Shown here piece by piece: positions 13,194-19,428 of a stretch of 64,000 bases of DNA; the first letter of the stretch is position 1; the number at the start of each line of letters is the position of its first letter. Below the pieces are notes generated by a model. The model was not told the origin of the DNA and did no database searches. It worked only from the letters and a program-made list of their open reading frames with translations. Origin of the DNA: a virus. Both the position numbers and the translations under genes were made by a program. The stretch is from the IMG/VR virus record IMGVR_UViG_3300023174_003623, positions 32,001 through 96,000 of that record; one strand, written 5' to 3'.

Positions 13194-15038
13194 TTATGCT
13201 CTAGCGTAATTTATAAAAAGCTGCTCTGATAATGACCCAAAATAAGGTGATGGATCTGGGACATTATTAATATCCCAAGGTTGCCCCGGTTTTATTACAG
13301 GTCTAGATCCAGCACTTGGTGTCATAACTGTAGGGGCTTTTACTTTTGGTTTTGGTTTTGGTTTAGTAACTTCCATGGTTTGCTTGGTAAGTTCTGTTCC
13401 TTTTTTTTCTTTTTCAGCAGCCATTTCTGAAGGAGTTAATAAATTTGCATCTACTGTTTTAGATGTTTCTCTCTTCCATCCCGGTATTCCACTTAATTCA
13501 TTAGGCTCCATCGGTTTTTCAGCCATAGCGGATTTAATAGTTTGTTGTTCTTTATCTGATCTTCGCTTTTCCATAGCGCCACTTTTTAAAGATCTCTGTT
13601 CTTCAAAATTTCCTGTGCGAGGATTGTATCCCATAGAAGCGCCATTAGCTCCAGTATCTTGACTGCTAACAATTCTACGTTTAAGATCTAATCCTTTTTC
13701 TCCAAAAATAGATTCTGCATGTGCTGCTTTTGTGTTTTTATCTGATGTGGACTGATAATCTTCAAGTTTTTTTTCAAGAACTTTAAGTTCTCCGGGGGGC
13801 ATCTGTTGAATGTATTTTTTAAATTTATCTGAATCAATATTTTCTTTAGCTAGTAATCCACTCTTTTCAAAATTTTTAACTATATCATCTTTTCTGGATG
13901 TATCTGCAACTTCTTCTGCGCGCAATCTTTCTCCAGCCCGATCCTCACCTTCTTTCATTAGATCATTAATTTTTTTGCCAATCCACATACCAGCCGCTGC
14001 GCCAGCTAATATTGCCAGCCCAGCAGGACTTACTAAAAATTTAAGTAGTGTGGGTAGAAATGATCGTATAGGTAATGTTAAAGCTTGTAACATCATTTTA
14101 ATAATTGTGCCCTTAACTCCGGGTAATAATAATAACAATCCAGCCGCTTGAAGAATTTGAATTCCAGAAATATGCTTTAACATATCCTCTGAAAACGCAT
14201 CATTGACAATTTTAGGTAAACCTTCTTTAAAAAATTTGGGAAGATCTTCAGTCATCCATTTCAACGCACCTTGTAACATTTCACCAAGTTTTTCTGGATT
14301 CTCTTTTAAGAATCTAACTATTGCTGGTGAAAATGCAAATAAAGCTAATCCAAGTGTCGATAAAAAATTGCCTTTTGCTTTTGGAGACTTAACTTTTCCG
14401 GGTTTATTGTATTCTGGCTCTTCTTCTATCTTAGTAGCATTTGTTTCTATAACAGGTTGTTCTGATAAAGACTTCAAAACATTTTTAAAGGATTTGTTTA
14501 TTTCAACGAAATTATCATATATGCCATTAAGAACCGTCTTCTCAGCTTCATCATTTTTTGAATTTACTTTTATAGCATCTGTTGTTTCAGGTAGACTCTC
14601 ACTAAGAGATTTAAACTCTTGAAATTTTTCTTCAATTATTTTTTCTTTTTTTGATAAATTTTTAAATTTATCAGTTAAAGCCTTAATTGACTTAATTGTA
14701 CTATTAAATCTTTTTTCATTTAATTTAGATTCTTTTCTAGCATCTTTTTTAATTTCAACTATATCTTTTTTAATTTCACCGATATCTTTTTCAAGCTCGT
14801 TTACTCTATCAGGAAGCGTTTCTATATCTTCTTGTAACTTTAATTTTTTAAAAGATGCAAGGACTTCTTTGAATTTTACAAATTTTTTATCTTCAATAGA
14901 TTTAAATCTATTAGTTTTTTCATTATATTCTAGATTAAGTTGCTTAAGTTTCTTTTTACTTTTTGAAACTTCAGCAATAATTTCTTTATCTTCACTTGAT
15001 ATAGTATTGCTAACAGGTTTATCGGAGGGTTTATCCAT
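13194..15038 (-). CDS. Tape-measure/baseplate hub-like protein (gp29 position)
   Basis: 614 aa, K/E coiled coil then several hydrophobic helices; downstream of 26/51. Confidence 0.55.
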   Translation of the reverse strand: MDKPSDKPVSNTISSEDKEIIAEVSKSKKKLKQLNLEYNEKTNRFKSIEDKKFVKFKEVLASFKKLKLQEDIETLPDRVNELEKDIGEIKKDIVEIKKDARKESKLNEKRFNSTIKSIKALTDKFKNLSKKEKIIEEKFQEFKSLSESLPETTDAIKVNSKNDEAEKTVLNGIYDNFVEINKSFKNVLKSLSEQPVIETNATKIEEEPEYNKPGKVKSPKAKGNFLSTLGLALFAFSPAIVRFLKENPEKLGEMLQGALKWMTEDLPKFFKEGLPKIVNDAFSEDMLKHISGIQILQAAGLLLLLPGVKGTIIKMMLQALTLPIRSFLPTLLKFLVSPAGLAILAGAAAGMWIGKKINDLMKEGEDRAGERLRAEEVADTSRKDDIVKNFEKSGLLAKENIDSDKFKKYIQQMPPGELKVLEKKLEDYQSTSDKNTKAAHAESIFGEKGLDLKRRIVSSQDTGANGASMGYNPRTGNFEEQRSLKSGAMEKRRSDKEQQTIKSAMAEKPMEPNELSGIPGWKRETSKTVDANLLTPSEMAAEKEKKGTELTKQTMEVTKPKPKPKVKAPTVMTPSAGSRPVIKPGQPWDINNVPDPSPYFGSLSEQLFINYARA

Positions 15039-15271
15039 TACTTTTTACTCGCCCAAGTGGTGAATCCCATATATGCGCCAACAACAGAAGCCATAGCAAA
15101 ATAAAAAGTGTCAAATACACCATCAAGAGATTTAATTCTTTCATCAGAAATAAATGGTGTTAAAAGAAGTCCAGTAAAAGAGACCATAGATGCCATAGCA
15201 AGCCATGCCATCTTTCTTCTATTTTTCCATCTAGCAGAATCTATTTTTTCTGGTTGTATTTCGTCTGACAC
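15038..15271 (-). CDS. Small two-TM membrane protein
   Basis: 77 aa, GTG start overlapping the gp51 TAG; RWKNRRKMAW then two hydrophobic helices. Confidence 0.7.
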   Translation of the reverse strand: MSDEIQPEKIDSARWKNRRKMAWLAMASMVSFTGLLLTPFISDERIKSLDGVFDTFYFAMASVVGAYMGFTTWASKK

Positions 15272-15456
15272 TATTTTGCAGCCCTTTCTTTACGTTCTTT
15301 TTCTTCTTTTAAATATTCTAGTAGCATGTCTACATAGATATCTCGCTCAAATGGTATCAATTCTTCTATTTCATTTATTGAATACTTATGATGCTGAGCC
15401 ATTGCAAAAACTGTGGTATAGTAGTTTTTGAGGCTAGTATGACTCAGCCCTAAGTA
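15271..15456 (-). CDS. 51: gp51-like baseplate hub assembly chaperone (not in ORF track; probably reached by -1 frameshift from gene 26)
   Basis: Reads YLGLSHTSLKNYYTTVFAMAQHHKYSINEIEELIPFERDIYVDMLLEYLKEE..; QHHKYS..E....P.ER.IY signature; first in-frame ATG only at 15402. Confidence 0.85.
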   Translation of the reverse strand, partial: YLGLSHTSLKNYYTTVFAMAQHHKYSINEIEELIPFERDIYVDMLLEYLKEEKERKERAAK

Positions 15457-16148
15457 AAAAAATCCTGTATTGAACTCAACTTAATACTTCTATCGTTACC
15501 TAATGCATTCTTATAGTTAATTTCGTGATACAACTTAGGCATGGTCAAGAAAAATTCTTCTATTTTCTTAAATGTTTTTGTATCTAAATTTTCGAGGAAC
15601 TCGATCAATTCTTCCTTGGTACTTTCATTTGCTGGGTATACGTTTTCGGCATCATATACGGTATCAATTGTGTGGATCAAAATGTTGTTTAATAAATCAT
15701 TTTCATTATCGATACTTGAAAGTTGTTCAGTGATTTTTATGCTTGGAAACTTTAAAACCATTCCCACATCTTCATTGATTTGAATTTTTTTATTGTTATC
15801 AGGATTGTAGGTGACTTCTATTTCATCTAGATTTACATCAAACTCATAAACTTGGTCATCCTCATTATCCCGATATCGTAACTTGACAACGTTATTTACA
15901 GACCTTGCTCTAAGCTTAAGAAAGATATACTCAACATCAAATGTGGTTAGTTCTTGTACATTAATTTCTTCTAAGCAACAATTGTTAATTACTTGCAATA
16001 AAGAAAAAATACCATCACCATCACCACCTTGTTGAGCAATTAAAAGAAGCTTTTCCTCTTTTACAAGGAAAGGTCTGAATCGAAAGTCTTTCCCCGTAGA
16101 AGGAATTCTAATAGTAAAAACCGGTGCTGTAATTTTTGGTAAAGCCAT
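15450..16148 (-). CDS. 26: gp26-like baseplate hub assembly protein
   Basis: MALPKI, RPFLVKEEKLLL, FD.EYIFL.LRARSV, FF.TMPKL, ends DFFT. Confidence 0.92.
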   Translation of the reverse strand: MALPKITAPVFTIRIPSTGKDFRFRPFLVKEEKLLLIAQQGGDGDGIFSLLQVINNCCLEEINVQELTTFDVEYIFLKLRARSVNNVVKLRYRDNEDDQVYEFDVNLDEIEVTYNPDNNKKIQINEDVGMVLKFPSIKITEQLSSIDNENDLLNNILIHTIDTVYDAENVYPANESTKEELIEFLENLDTKTFKKIEEFFLTMPKLYHEINYKNALGNDRSIKLSSIQDFFT

Positions 16149-16165
16149 TGTATACTCCTAATTAA

Positions 16166-16975
16166 TTAAAAAAATCCACTTAATCCACCACCAATAATAT
16201 TGGCATTGTTTACTAAGTTTATCGCATCACCTACACCTTGAGGTTTCTTTAATGATGCTATTGTTTCTGCAATAGTTGCTGCTTTGATTATTTTCTGTAA
16301 AAAAGTTAATCCGGGTGTTGCTCTTTCTGTTACTTTGAAATGTTCACAAGTCCAATATTTAAATGTAAAATTCATATCAATAACCATCATATTATTTTGA
16401 GTTGCCCAACTCATAGGTATATTATTTAACCGATAAGGAAAGGCTTCATACAAAGTATATTCCATTACTTTATCAGAAGTGTTATTATATACTGTAATTA
16501 CCATATCACTAATATAGCTGTCTCTATAATTAACTCTATGAAAAGTTTCTGGAGAACTAAATTGCTTACCAAAATCTTTATCATATTGAACTATATTACT
16601 CATCCAAGTTTGCATTTGTTTCATAATATATCCATTGGAATCTCCTATAAATTCCAATTTGATATCATTAAAAATTGCTGCATAAGGAAATTTGTCTACA
16701 GGTCCAGTACCATCAATGATGTTTTCTTCTAATGCAATATCAATCCCCGGAAGATCTGTTGCCATAGTAAAAAACGTTACTACTTTTTCAAGTTGGGGAG
16801 GCGTATGTCGATGAAATGTTACTAAAAATAAATTAGTAGGAAGAATGCCATTTAATGAACTAAGATTACTTCTAAATTCTTGTATATCAAATCCACCTGC
16901 TTTTGCTTTAGGTAGACTGGTATTTAATCCTATAAACGACCCAACTTTGCTTGTTATTGAATCAAGAATGCTCAT
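16166..16975 (-). CDS. Tail tube-like baseplate protein (gp54-like)
   Basis: LPG..., W...I, Y.L.EAFP, F.FKYW tube-fold pattern; position next to gene 2. Confidence 0.7.
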   Translation of the reverse strand: MSILDSITSKVGSFIGLNTSLPKAKAGGFDIQEFRSNLSSLNGILPTNLFLVTFHRHTPPQLEKVVTFFTMATDLPGIDIALEENIIDGTGPVDKFPYAAIFNDIKLEFIGDSNGYIMKQMQTWMSNIVQYDKDFGKQFSSPETFHRVNYRDSYISDMVITVYNNTSDKVMEYTLYEAFPYRLNNIPMSWATQNNMMVIDMNFTFKYWTCEHFKVTERATPGLTFLQKIIKAATIAETIASLKKPQGVGDAINLVNNANIIGGGLSGFF

Positions 16976-17592
16976 GGGCTTCTTCCCTTTTTAATTTTAG
17001 ATATACTTTCTTTCCAAACAGTAGCATCCGATTGCTTTTGAAATCTCTGTAAAGGTAAAAATAAAGCCAATTCCCATTCACTCGGAGGAATCAATGCCAT
17101 TTTAGATTTTATATGTGTACTCAAATATCGTTTTACACAAGGAATATAAGGCTTTAGGCCGCTCTTAGATTTTAATATACTGTAACTTATCTTAGCTAAT
17201 CTTGTTGTATCTTTGTCCATATCAGTTGAGTTTGCAAACTGATAAAGCCCATCCATTAAAACTGCTCTATATGGGTATGGTAAATAATGTAAATTTAAAC
17301 CTAAAAATCCGTCAGATAAAATTTTAAATGGAAATACTATAGGGAATGTGTCATAATAAGGAAGCGTTTTTTTAAGTTTTGGAGAATAGTTATATAAAAA
17401 TAAGCTACCTATAAATTTATTAGAGTTTAAAGTAGTTACTTTTTTATCTCTATCTTCAATAACTTTAGTAGGAGGTAATCGAGACTTGCTTACTTTTTGT
17501 GCTCTATCTCTAAACCACATTCTAGAGTCTTCAACTCTGTTAAATGTCTGGGCTTCGCTTTCCTGCAAAATAGTGTCGTAAAATGTTGGCAT
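16972..17592 (-). CDS. 2: gp2 DNA end protector
   Basis: PK.K.TLPYYD.FP, GFLGLNLHYLP, C.KRYL, W..A.FLP...F. Confidence 0.93.
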   Translation of the reverse strand: MPTFYDTILQESEAQTFNRVEDSRMWFRDRAQKVSKSRLPPTKVIEDRDKKVTTLNSNKFIGSLFLYNYSPKLKKTLPYYDTFPIVFPFKILSDGFLGLNLHYLPYPYRAVLMDGLYQFANSTDMDKDTTRLAKISYSILKSKSGLKPYIPCVKRYLSTHIKSKMALIPPSEWELALFLPLQRFQKQSDATVWKESISKIKKGRSP

Positions 17593-18035
17593 TAAACTAC
17601 GATTCCTAATTCTTTTTCTGTTATTATCAGAAATTTCCAGTTTTTATTTTCACAATATTTATTCGCTGCTTCCCATTTTGCTTGATTTATTCCCCATGTT
17701 TGCACTTCGTATAAATACCTTTTAGTAATTTGTTTTTTGGGTGTTGGCGGCATGGTTTGAGATTTAGGTTTTACCTCAATTACTACTGTTTCTATTATAC
17801 CTTCTTTATTCTTTTTCTTTACCCAAAAATCTGGAAAATAGCGATGAACTTTACCATCTATTGGTGATTTATAGGGAACAAAAAACTCTTCGCTAGCCCA
17901 TTGGATAACGTTGGGATTTCGATCAAGGTAAGTCATCAACTTAAGCTCATAAGAAGAGCGATAAATTATTTGCTGAACATCACCTTTATACTTTTGTGGG
18001 TACTTTGCATTAAAATACCCTTTATAAGTTTTCAT
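17592..18035 (-). CDS. 4: gp4 head completion protein (TnsA-like nuclease fold)
   Basis: KYKGD...IIYRSS.E, W.SEE..PY.SP.D...HRYFPDF, EVKP..QT, N.AKW.AA, TEKEL. Confidence 0.93.
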   Translation of the reverse strand: MKTYKGYFNAKYPQKYKGDVQQIIYRSSYELKLMTYLDRNPNVIQWASEEFFVPYKSPIDGKVHRYFPDFWVKKKNKEGIIETVVIEVKPKSQTMPPTPKKQITKRYLYEVQTWGINQAKWEAANKYCENKNWKFLIITEKELGIVV

Positions 18036-18158
18036 TTTTCCATTTTAATCTTCAATGTTATTAATTATCATATAAATAAACATGGTGTACTACCTTTTGC
18101 TTTATGTATATTTACACAACAAAGCAGGATTACCTTTATACTTTTGTGGGTACTTTGC
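17982..18158. repeat. 27-bp exact direct repeat duplicating the 5' end of gene 4
   Basis: ACCTTTATACTTTTGTGGGTACTTTGC at 17982-18008 and 18132-18158 (offset 150). Confidence 0.95.
18071..18078 (+). promoter_or_regulatory. Late promoter for the baseplate operon
   Basis: TATAAATA upstream of the gene at 18208. Confidence 0.65.
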
Positions 18159-18182
18159 GTTAAAAAAACCATGGTAGCTCAT
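18102..18182 (-). pseudogene. Truncated duplicate 5' end of gene 4
   Basis: AAGGA RBS then MSYHGFFNAKYPQKYKGNPALLCKYT*; same frame as gene 4. Confidence 0.75.
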
Positions 18183-18187
18183 ATCCT

Positions 18188-18195
18188 TATTTATA
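18188..18195 (-). promoter_or_regulatory. Late promoter for the minus-strand 4-2-54-26-51 block
   Basis: TATTTATA on plus strand = TATAAATA on minus. Confidence 0.75.
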
Positions 18196-18207
18196 AGAGG
18201 AACGAAA

Positions 18208-19428
18208 ATGTCATTCGACTCATTAAATTTTGTAAGTGATGCTGGTAAAAATATTGGCTCCATGGTAACAGGTGCTGCATCATCACTTACAAGTAAATTG
18301 GGTAGCACTATATCTGGTTTATCAAAATCTGGATTGTCTTTAGATGGTATAAAATCTATAGCCACTTCCAAATTAGATTCTTTATCGAATGCCCTCAATC
18401 CCGATACAAATTTATCATCTAATTTTGCTAGGGTTTCTCCCAATGAACTTTTGTCTTCTAGGTCTAATTCTCAAACTGGAAGTGGAGATCCATCTACAGC
18501 TATAGGTGCAAATCAAAAAAATCAAAAAACTCAAACGTTGGAATATCCTCTATCTAAAGATATTCATACGGATTTTATGAAAGTTAAATTTTCAAAATAT
18601 GTTAGACCAAGTGCAGTTGAAAGAGGCACATTTAATACAGAAATGGAAATTTGCCTTCCTCTTCCTAGAGACTTAAGAGATACTCATAGTGTGCAATTAA
18701 ATGCACAGGCTACTAGTATTGTTGGTGCAATGGCAGGAACTTTAGAAATGTTAGGTAATGAATTTGGTAAATTTAGTTCTGATTTATCAATGAAAGATTT
18801 ATTGTCTGAAGGTGGTGGTATTGGTTATTATGCAGCAAAAGCTGCGGTGTCATCATCATCACCATTAGGTATGTCGGGTGAACAGATTGCGGATACTTTT
18901 GGTCAATATATTGGAGCAATACCAAATCCACATATTTCTTTATTTTTTAATGGCGCAGACATAAGAGGTGCTATAGAATTTTCATGGTTGTTTTCTCCAA
19001 GGAATGCTGATGAAAGTGATCGCATAAAACAAATAATACAGCAATTTAAATCAAGAACTTTACCTAAAGTTACTAATGGTAGTGGTAATATTATGGGTTA
19101 CCCTAATATGGTAGAAATTGAACTTTATCCGTGGGCCGATCAAAAAGGTGGTCTTCAGACAATGCCAATTTACAAAAGAGGTATGATTGAATCTATAAAC
19201 GTAAATTACACACCAACCGGATTATCTTTGTTTGCTGATGATAATGCACCAGTTTTTGTTATATTTTCTTTTCTATTTCAAGAAATAGAAGTATTTACAG
19301 CTAATGATTTTGGTTCAGAAAGTTTTGATATCAATACTATAGCAGCCAAGGCTTTATCTACTATTGATAATGCTACTTCTAGTTTACAAACAGTATCTTC
19401 AATACCAAGTCCAGTGACGAGAACATAA
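18208..19428 (+). CDS. 48: gp48-like baseplate tail-tube cap
   Basis: YP, LPLP, NPH..L.F.G, F.W.FSPRN..ES, VNYTP.G, FQE.E; Ser-rich N-terminal extension. Confidence 0.75.
   Translation: MSFDSLNFVSDAGKNIGSMVTGAASSLTSKLGSTISGLSKSGLSLDGIKSIATSKLDSLSNALNPDTNLSSNFARVSPNELLSSRSNSQTGSGDPSTAIGANQKNQKTQTLEYPLSKDIHTDFMKVKFSKYVRPSAVERGTFNTEMEICLPLPRDLRDTHSVQLNAQATSIVGAMAGTLEMLGNEFGKFSSDLSMKDLLSEGGGIGYYAAKAAVSSSSPLGMSGEQIADTFGQYIGAIPNPHISLFFNGADIRGAIEFSWLFSPRNADESDRIKQIIQQFKSRTLPKVTNGSGNIMGYPNMVEIELYPWADQKGGLQTMPIYKRGMIESINVNYTPTGLSLFADDNAPVFVIFSFLFQEIEVFTANDFGSESFDINTIAAKALSTIDNATSSLQTVSSIPSPVTRT

Follow-up and report, generated by a model that had tools for sequence, protein, structure and literature searches.

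How a phage can make a gp51-like protein whose conserved sequence begins upstream of its only start codon is the question raised by a locus in the 64,000-nucleotide (nt) stretch of viral DNA analysed here (the window), which covers positions 32,001-96,000 of the record IMGVR_UViG_3300023174_003623 (154,777 bp, estimated to be 81% complete). In this T4-like phage, gene 26 ends on the minus strand with a run of seven T residues, and a gp51-like module follows from the same run in the -1 frame. The site is best read as a conserved programmed -1 ribosomal frameshift in a tail assembly chaperone (TAC) gene, brought about by tandem tRNA-Phe slippage on U UUU UUY, a reading to which, judging from sequence comparison, a probability of about 0.82 is assigned. 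The elements of the site are the following:

15450-16148, minus strand: gp26, predicted short chaperone form (TAC-N) of 232 residues, read in the zero frame to the stop TAG at 15452-15450.
15456-15462, minus strand: slippery heptamer U UUU UUU in the register (GA)U UUU UUU, conserved as in-register T TTT TTY/A.
15449-15455, minus strand: spacer of 7 nt from heptamer to hairpin, including the ACU codon of the zero frame and the initial bases of UAG.
15393-15448, minus strand: hairpin with an outer 10-bp stem (15448-15439 with 15402-15393) and an inner 8-bp stem (15430-15423 with 15412-15405).
15271-15462, minus strand: -1 frame module, a gp51-like C-terminal extension of 63 codons from the heptamer, with the stop TAG at 15273-15271.
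15400-15402, minus strand: internal AUG of the -1 frame, with no Shine-Dalgarno (SD) sequence and within the 3' arm of the outer stem.

Gene 26 is preceded by an AGGAG ribosome-binding site, and profile searches matched its product to PF12322 T4_baseplate (E 2.5e-52, residues 12-231) and to phrog_150 (E 5e-58). Its 3' end reads GAT TTT TTT ACT TAG, with the T7 run at 15462-15456, while the -1 frame has no stop from 18 nt before the heptamer onwards and continues as FF-YLGLSHTSLKNYYTTVFAMAQHHKYS... to the TAG at 15273-15271. The -1 peptide matches phrog_634, 'baseplate hub assembly catalyst' (gp51), with an E-value of 2.3e-25 over residues 2-61, and also matches the tail of phrog_150. This homology begins at the U-run, 20 codons before the only AUG. 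That codon (ATG 15402-15400) is the sole ATG, GTG or TTG of the -1 frame; it is located 60 nt past the heptamer start, and its SD complementarity amounts to +0.9 kcal/mol, compared with -2.1 to -6.8 kcal/mol at seven real starts nearby. An earlier reading of this DNA from its letters alone (the sequence-only reading) had described the end of gene 26, the A7 at 15456-15462 and an open -1 frame with homology to gp51, all of which is correct, and had placed a gp51-like part upstream of a first ATG (15402) without an obvious ribosome-binding site, which the profile match and the SD calculation bear out. Conceptual fusion of the two frames gives 292 residues, with ...LSSIQDFF running on into YLGLSHTSLK at the junction; the trans-frame peptide of the predicted fusion is ...IQDFFYLGLSHTSLK, and the trans-frame tryptic peptide is LSSIQDFFYLGLSHTSLK. 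An AlphaFold2 (AF2) model of the C-terminal module (C-module) consists of a small domain of three helices, with a predicted local distance difference test (pLDDT) score of 72.9.

Conservation of this arrangement was followed in 80 fetched IMG/VR loci (gp26 identity 34-68%) and four isolate phages, of which all those with downstream sequence, that is 79 IMG/VR loci and the 4 isolates, make up together with the window a set of 84 loci. In 84/84 loci the frame of the gp51-like module is -1 with respect to gp26, a count that overstates the number of independent events since the loci are phylogenetically related. Every locus carries a heptamer in register, 0-24 nt ahead of the gp26 stop (TTTTTTT in 54, TTTTTTC in 29 and TTTTTTA in 1), the chance level being given by the 0.5% of codon positions at which in-register XXXYYYZ heptamers occur elsewhere in gp26 genes. 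The run is T6 in 30, T7 in 41 and T8 in 13 loci; it starts at codon position 3 without exception, and position 7 of the heptamer is U or C in 83 of the 84. The onset of homology in tblastn coincides exactly with the heptamer in 83/84 loci, and from the heptamer onwards the -1 peptides align without gaps in all loci except L037 (FF-x3-LSH-x-SL-x-NYY...). The first Phe codon is TTT in every locus, against 64.5% TTT among Phe codons elsewhere, and the codon preceding this Phe codon is always NNT, though it encodes D, S, N, A or G; the invariance of both argues for selection on the RNA and not on the protein alone. In 18 loci the -1 frame opens exactly at the heptamer. The first canonical start of the -1 frame is found anywhere between -51 and +135 nt, its position not being conserved, and lies at least 30 nt inside the module in 50 of the 84 loci. 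Alignment of the 26/51 junctions across relatives, the check suggested by the sequence-only reading, found the U-run and the -1 register conserved throughout the set, with no random frame offsets.

A tblastn search with the -1 peptide extended the module to 538 phage records, from phages of Synechococcus, Prochlorococcus, Vibrio, Rhizobium, Sinorhizobium, Pelagibacter, Methylophilales, Pseudomonas and Stenotrophomonas. The matches start at query residues 1-7, residue 7 being the first Phe of the U-run, and fall under both 'gp26' and 'gp51' features. Five of six further isolates have the heptamer arrangement, namely Vibrio ValKK3 and Aeromonas phage 65 (both Straboviridae), Sinorhizobium phiM12, Caulobacter Cr30 and Acidovorax ACP17. 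The sole relative inspected that has no heptamer is Pseudomonas phage Cygsa01 (PP179332.1, L089:1890-2111), in which the gp26 end reads ATT TTC ACC TAATG and the ATG overlapping the stop opens a gp51-like open reading frame (ORF). No joined coding sequence is present in any of the ten annotated relatives inspected, the start of the gp51-like ORF being arbitrary or the ORF unannotated. The gp51-like -1 ORF is unannotated in ACP17 (L090:1950-2115) and in S-WAM1 (L002:1001-1200), and in Aeromonas phage 65 (L086:1893-2072) it is annotated only as an 81-nt 'hypothetical protein'.

The relation of the two frames to each other is illuminated by T4 itself. T4 genes 26 and 51, which the sequence-only reading described as normally treated as separate, are indeed so; they are adjacent but divergent, and therefore cannot be fused there, so that a fusion applies to non-T4 lineages. 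Both T4 proteins carry PF12322. In T4 gp51 (249 residues), PF12322 extends over residues 1-201, phrog_150 is matched over its positions 13-280 of 282 and phrog_634 over residues 147-246; on these profile matches, T4 gp51 consists of a gp26-like domain to which the same C-module is appended, i.e. a hard-wired long form. A three-way alignment demonstrated that T4 gp26 ends ...EFFEL where the window gp26 ends ...DFFT, whereas T4 gp51 continues in frame through the module, the window C-module aligning to its residues ~200-249. Given this alignment across the junction, the predicted 292-residue fusion exists in nature as a hard-wired protein. The Phe-Phe pair of T4 gene 26 is encoded by TTC TTT, and there is no slippery run. 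In the phage's own record, which is about 81% complete, there is one PF12322 gene only, and no second, hard-wired long form in the style of T4 gp51 was found.

The chaperone identity of gp26 was approached through its predicted structure. The AF2 model, obtained with 59 sequences, has a pLDDT of 88.6 and a predicted template-modelling score (pTM) of 0.82. Exhaustive comparison of the model with 48,161 chains by VIA-align gave 3fgx (Z 8.0), 2ob9 (Z 7.3) and 3klu (Z 7.0) as the top three matches, all over residues 1-90, values of Z 7-8 that are middling by the tool's own calibration, the set of matches being nonetheless specific; the next matches reach Z 5 or less. The three alignments comprise 84-85 residues with 9-12% identity and a root-mean-square deviation of ~4 Å. 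These entries, 3FGX (Rbstp2171), 2OB9 (HK97 gp13) and 3KLU (B. subtilis YqbN), are given in PMC9603447 as the phage TAC structures of Pell et al. 2013. A Foldseek search of gp26 against the PDB returned no match at E <= 0.001, and nothing meaningful was obtained with the gp26 profile against PDB sequences. The model thus lends moderate support to a TAC-like fold, which is a spiral-forming alpha/beta domain, for residues 1-90. The two products proposed in the sequence-only reading, gp26 of 232 residues and a fusion of about 292 residues, are supported by the frame, by the heptamer and its register in all 84 loci, by the lack of conserved starts, by the hard-wired T4 gp51 and by this TAC-like fold.

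The hairpin downstream of the heptamer had been described with its 7-nt spacer and its buried ATG, and refolding reproduced it with a minimum free energy of -19.8 kcal/mol (z = -2.95; 2/200 shuffles equally stable), which places it within the best 2% of 70-nt windows in its own locus. The only in-frame AUG lies in the outer stem, on its 3' side. The 70-nt segments following the heptamer rank in the best 5% of their own locus in 16/33 loci of the window's clade, as against 8/51 outside it. In an ungapped alignment of 32 clade sequences the outer stem is 85.6% paired, with two-sided changes in 5/10 pairs (pair 21/64, for example, is UG in 16, UA in 7, CG in 6 and AU in 1), and the whole structure is 74% paired, compared with 31-44% once the 3' partners have been displaced by 1-3 columns; the inner stem, 59% paired in the clade, is weak. 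The observed covariation score was reached by 0/500 shuffles, but the two-sided changes are few and related sequences can beat shuffles without structure. The hairpin arms, moreover, encode conserved residues (LSH, M/L-A-Q), so that a part of the conservation is protein constraint. Of the compensated hairpin anticipated from the sequence alone, an outer stem with some covariation is therefore retained in the window's clade, whereas outside it the hairpin is not conserved and an unusually stable fold is seen in only the 8 loci just mentioned. On the pattern of sequence conservation, the hairpin is probably a clade-specific stimulator and not a universal part of the signal.

The window's exact hairpin was also sought outside the clade and rejected there, since loci carry an S-WAM1-type hairpin in another register and many are without any. 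In S-WAM1 (L002:1007-1070) a different, very stable hairpin of -27 kcal/mol follows the heptamer, with similar ones in L063 and L072. Two A-L-M motifs with palindromic coding (GCGUUAAUGCA...UGCAUUAAUGC) form it, and its register, which differs from that of the window, suggests that the downstream structures are of independent origin. An SD-like stimulator upstream of the slippery site was considered as well and discarded; the AGGA adjoining the heptamer of the window is missing from relatives. Within 15100-15700 there is no Rfam family match.

The same 292-residue fusion would be obtained by standard translation if the polymerase added one U on the T-run in some transcripts. Such transcriptional slippage could act at a homopolymer like this one (T7 here, T7-T8 in 54/84 loci), its product would be identical to that of -1 frameshifting, and both mechanisms can coexist. 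Efficient transcriptional slippage needs runs of about 8-9, however, and the T6 that is all that 30/84 loci possess is short for a polymerase; the register fixed in 84/84 loci and the U or C at position 7 suit tandem tRNA-Phe and are not required by a polymerase, and in this clade the site is followed by a hairpin at the canonical 7-nt spacing. Slippage of the polymerase is accordingly regarded as unlikely. Even less can be said for an error of sequencing or assembly in the homopolymer, by which the true genome would have T8 and encode the in-frame fusion only. Some sequencing chemistries often produce indels in homopolymers, and the virus is an uncultured one known from a metagenome, yet the -1 offset recurs in 84/84 independent assemblies and isolates from many samples and platforms, and in L005, the closest relative at 68% identity, the T7 run and the stop are arranged identically. 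Since the offset is the same in all loci, such an error, including the artefact of six or eight T of which the sequence-only reading had warned, is excluded for practical purposes.

It might also be supposed that gp51 is the product of an independent gene, translated from AUG 15402 (43 residues), from a non-canonical start or by reinitiation near the gp26 stop, with no fusion being formed. This is how relatives are annotated in most GenBank records, and two observations on relatives favour it: the TAATG overlap of Cygsa01, where the C-module may be made alone by stop-start coupling and is possibly unfused, and the GTG located 9 nt past the heptamer start in 13 relatives, which could permit independent initiation. 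Both weigh against a programmed frameshift, as do the relatedness of the 84 loci, the middling structural scores of gp26, and the restriction of the hairpin to one clade with its few two-sided changes and its partly coding-driven conservation. Initiation at AUG 15402 itself is rejected as unlikely in view of the lack of an SD sequence, of burial in the stem and of truncation of the conserved module, of which 20 conserved residues would be lost. Across the 84 loci the possible starts scatter from -51 to +135 nt and in 18 the -1 frame is closed up to the heptamer; two independent genes would leave the invariant synonymous positions of the U-run unexplained, and T4 gp51 provides a natural case of the module as a C-terminal extension of a gp26-like domain. 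A separately initiated gp51 is hence considered quite improbable for the window.

With programmed -1 frameshifting as the preferred reading, most ribosomes would read gene 26 to the UAG and produce the 232-residue short form. A minority, with tRNA-Phe in both the P and the A site on U UUU UUU, would slip back by one base and read UAC UUA GGG..., thereby adding a helical module of 61 residues and yielding the 292-residue long form, the presumed equivalent of full-length T4 gp51. The clade hairpin, 7 nt further on, probably holds the ribosome up and makes slippage more frequent; because it also hides the only in-frame AUG, it is proposed that no C-module arises except within the fusion. If lambda gpG/gpGT is a guide, the tape-measure protein may be coated by the short form, and the long form may use its C-module to recruit tube or hub subunits. 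Somewhat against the odds, it is also conceivable that the clade hairpin, with its 7-nt spacer, its covarying outer stem and its sequestered AUG, represents a previously undescribed lineage-specific stimulator, that the short:long ratio is tuned in each lineage, and that the two-gene state of T4 and the stop-start arrangement of Cygsa01 are derived from an ancestral frameshift.

The genes flanking the site in the window are these:

16166-16975, minus strand: upstream tail-tube-like gene (gp54/gp19-type), 269 residues, matching PF23849 Phage_TTP_2 (E 1e-14) and phrog_45 tail tube (E 5e-28).
15038-15271, minus strand: conserved protein of 77 residues, phrog_27150, between the chaperone and the large downstream gene.
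13194-15038, minus strand: protein of 614 residues, candidate tape measure by position, size and hydrophobic segments.

A tail-tube-like upstream neighbour is also present in ValKK3, Aeromonas phage 65, phiM12 and Mosig. The 614-residue protein occupies the position of the annotated tape-measure genes of phiM12 and Cr30, is near T4 gp29 in size and has three hydrophobic segments; an Atlas lead points to PF25671 at 0.90. Searches with Pfam and NCBIfam gave no tape-measure match for this protein (only coiled-coil noise from NCBIfam), tblastn found no relative of it among 50,697 phage records, and tblastn against all fetched loci matched L005 only. PF25671 (T4_Tape_measure) has no match in the phage's own genome. 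From position and size the protein is a candidate tape measure. The earlier placing of the chaperone locus directly upstream of tape-measure-like genes therefore stands as regards position, but the 614-residue protein has no detectable tape-measure homology.

Several further features of this region were recorded. Between 11407 and 15038 on the minus strand, consecutive large proteins of 614 and 594 residues are encoded, with charged, coiled-coil-like N-terminal parts and hydrophobic segments; PF25671 matches neither of them, and in the 594-residue protein the C-terminal domain resembles lysozymes and transglycosylases (phrog_90, E 6e-24; PF06737 below cut-off). The 77-residue protein (15038-15271) contains a hydrophobic segment and starts with a GTG that overlaps the -1 ORF stop; homologues occupy the equivalent place in L005 (60% identity) and Stenotrophomonas phage DLP_6 (43%). 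Further upstream, an ORF of 113 residues (18102-18443, minus strand) ends ...GFFNAKYPQKYKGNPALLCKYT, which repeats the N-terminus KGYFNAKYPQKYKGD... of the downstream gp4-like head-closure/TnsA-like gene (17592-18035, minus strand) and suggests a duplicated or rebuilt gene start.

The sequence-only reading knew of no description of a frameshift for genes 26 and 51, and on this point it has to be corrected, as an earlier description is credited to Vladimirov, Gautam & Davidson 2022 (Virology 566:9, doi 10.1016/j.virol.2021.11.003). By the accounts of two later papers (PMC10885494 and PMC12846349), gp26 and gp51 are treated there as chaperones of T4-like phages. The paper on PRFect (PMC10885494) cites that work for some T4-like phages having one short TAC gene and one longer, fused gene, with no frameshifting, while PMC12846349 cites it for TAC-N genes in T4-like phages that carry poly-T signals for a -1 slip. 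Among open papers on the cyanophage-type frameshift, only papers citing Vladimirov 2022 were found. As far as these citing papers convey its content, the arrangement in T4-like phages was already published in 2022, and the window is a well-supported further case; with the insight published, the value of the present analysis is confirmation on an uncultured lineage. Under the frameshift reading, T4-like phages would fall under the near-universal rule that a single locus supplies long-tailed phages with both a short and a long tail chaperone, and the long-puzzling T4 genes 26 and 51 would be explained. There is also a consequence for annotation: 538 phage records hold the gp51-like module, and public records need correction. 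The clade-specific hairpin and the exceptions, T4 and Cygsa01, offer a natural series for the evolution of frameshift signals.

Among known systems, T4 is the nearest. The window belongs to the gp26/gp51 family by homology, and its arrangement is frameshifted, not one of two paralogous genes as in T4. The two share the family (PF12322, phrog_150, phrog_634), the short/long pair and the position of the junction; the T4 forms, by contrast, are separate divergent paralogues without a slippery run, whereas the window has a single gene and recoding. Compared with the solved TACs, gp26 residues 90-232 have no counterpart. The -1 frameshift of E. coli dnaX consists of a heptamer, a downstream stem-loop and an upstream SD-like element. 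The window resembles it in its homopolymer-like heptamer, in the single tRNA species occupying both sites and in the stem-loop 5-9 nt downstream; it differs in that a conserved upstream SD-like stimulator is absent and in that the shift extends the protein, whereas in dnaX it truncates it.

In lambda the slip takes place on G GGA AAG and is not known to depend on a downstream structure. Pairs of the lambda type are characterised by short and long products in a fixed ratio, which are both required for tail assembly, are both missing from virions, and bind the tape measure and the tube protein. Its gpG/gpGT pair is reportedly an instance of a conserved -1 frameshift of dsDNA phage tail assembly genes (Levin, Hendrix and Casjens in 1993; Xu, Hendrix and Duda in 2004). 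There is no sequence similarity to the lambda pair, and gp26 is roughly double the size of gpG and has a further domain of ~140 residues. What the two systems have in common is a pair of overlapping ORFs with a -1 slip on X XXY YYZ a few codons before the upstream stop, a locus placed after a tube-type gene and before a large, in the window candidate, tape-measure gene, and, by analogy, a short major and a long minor product.

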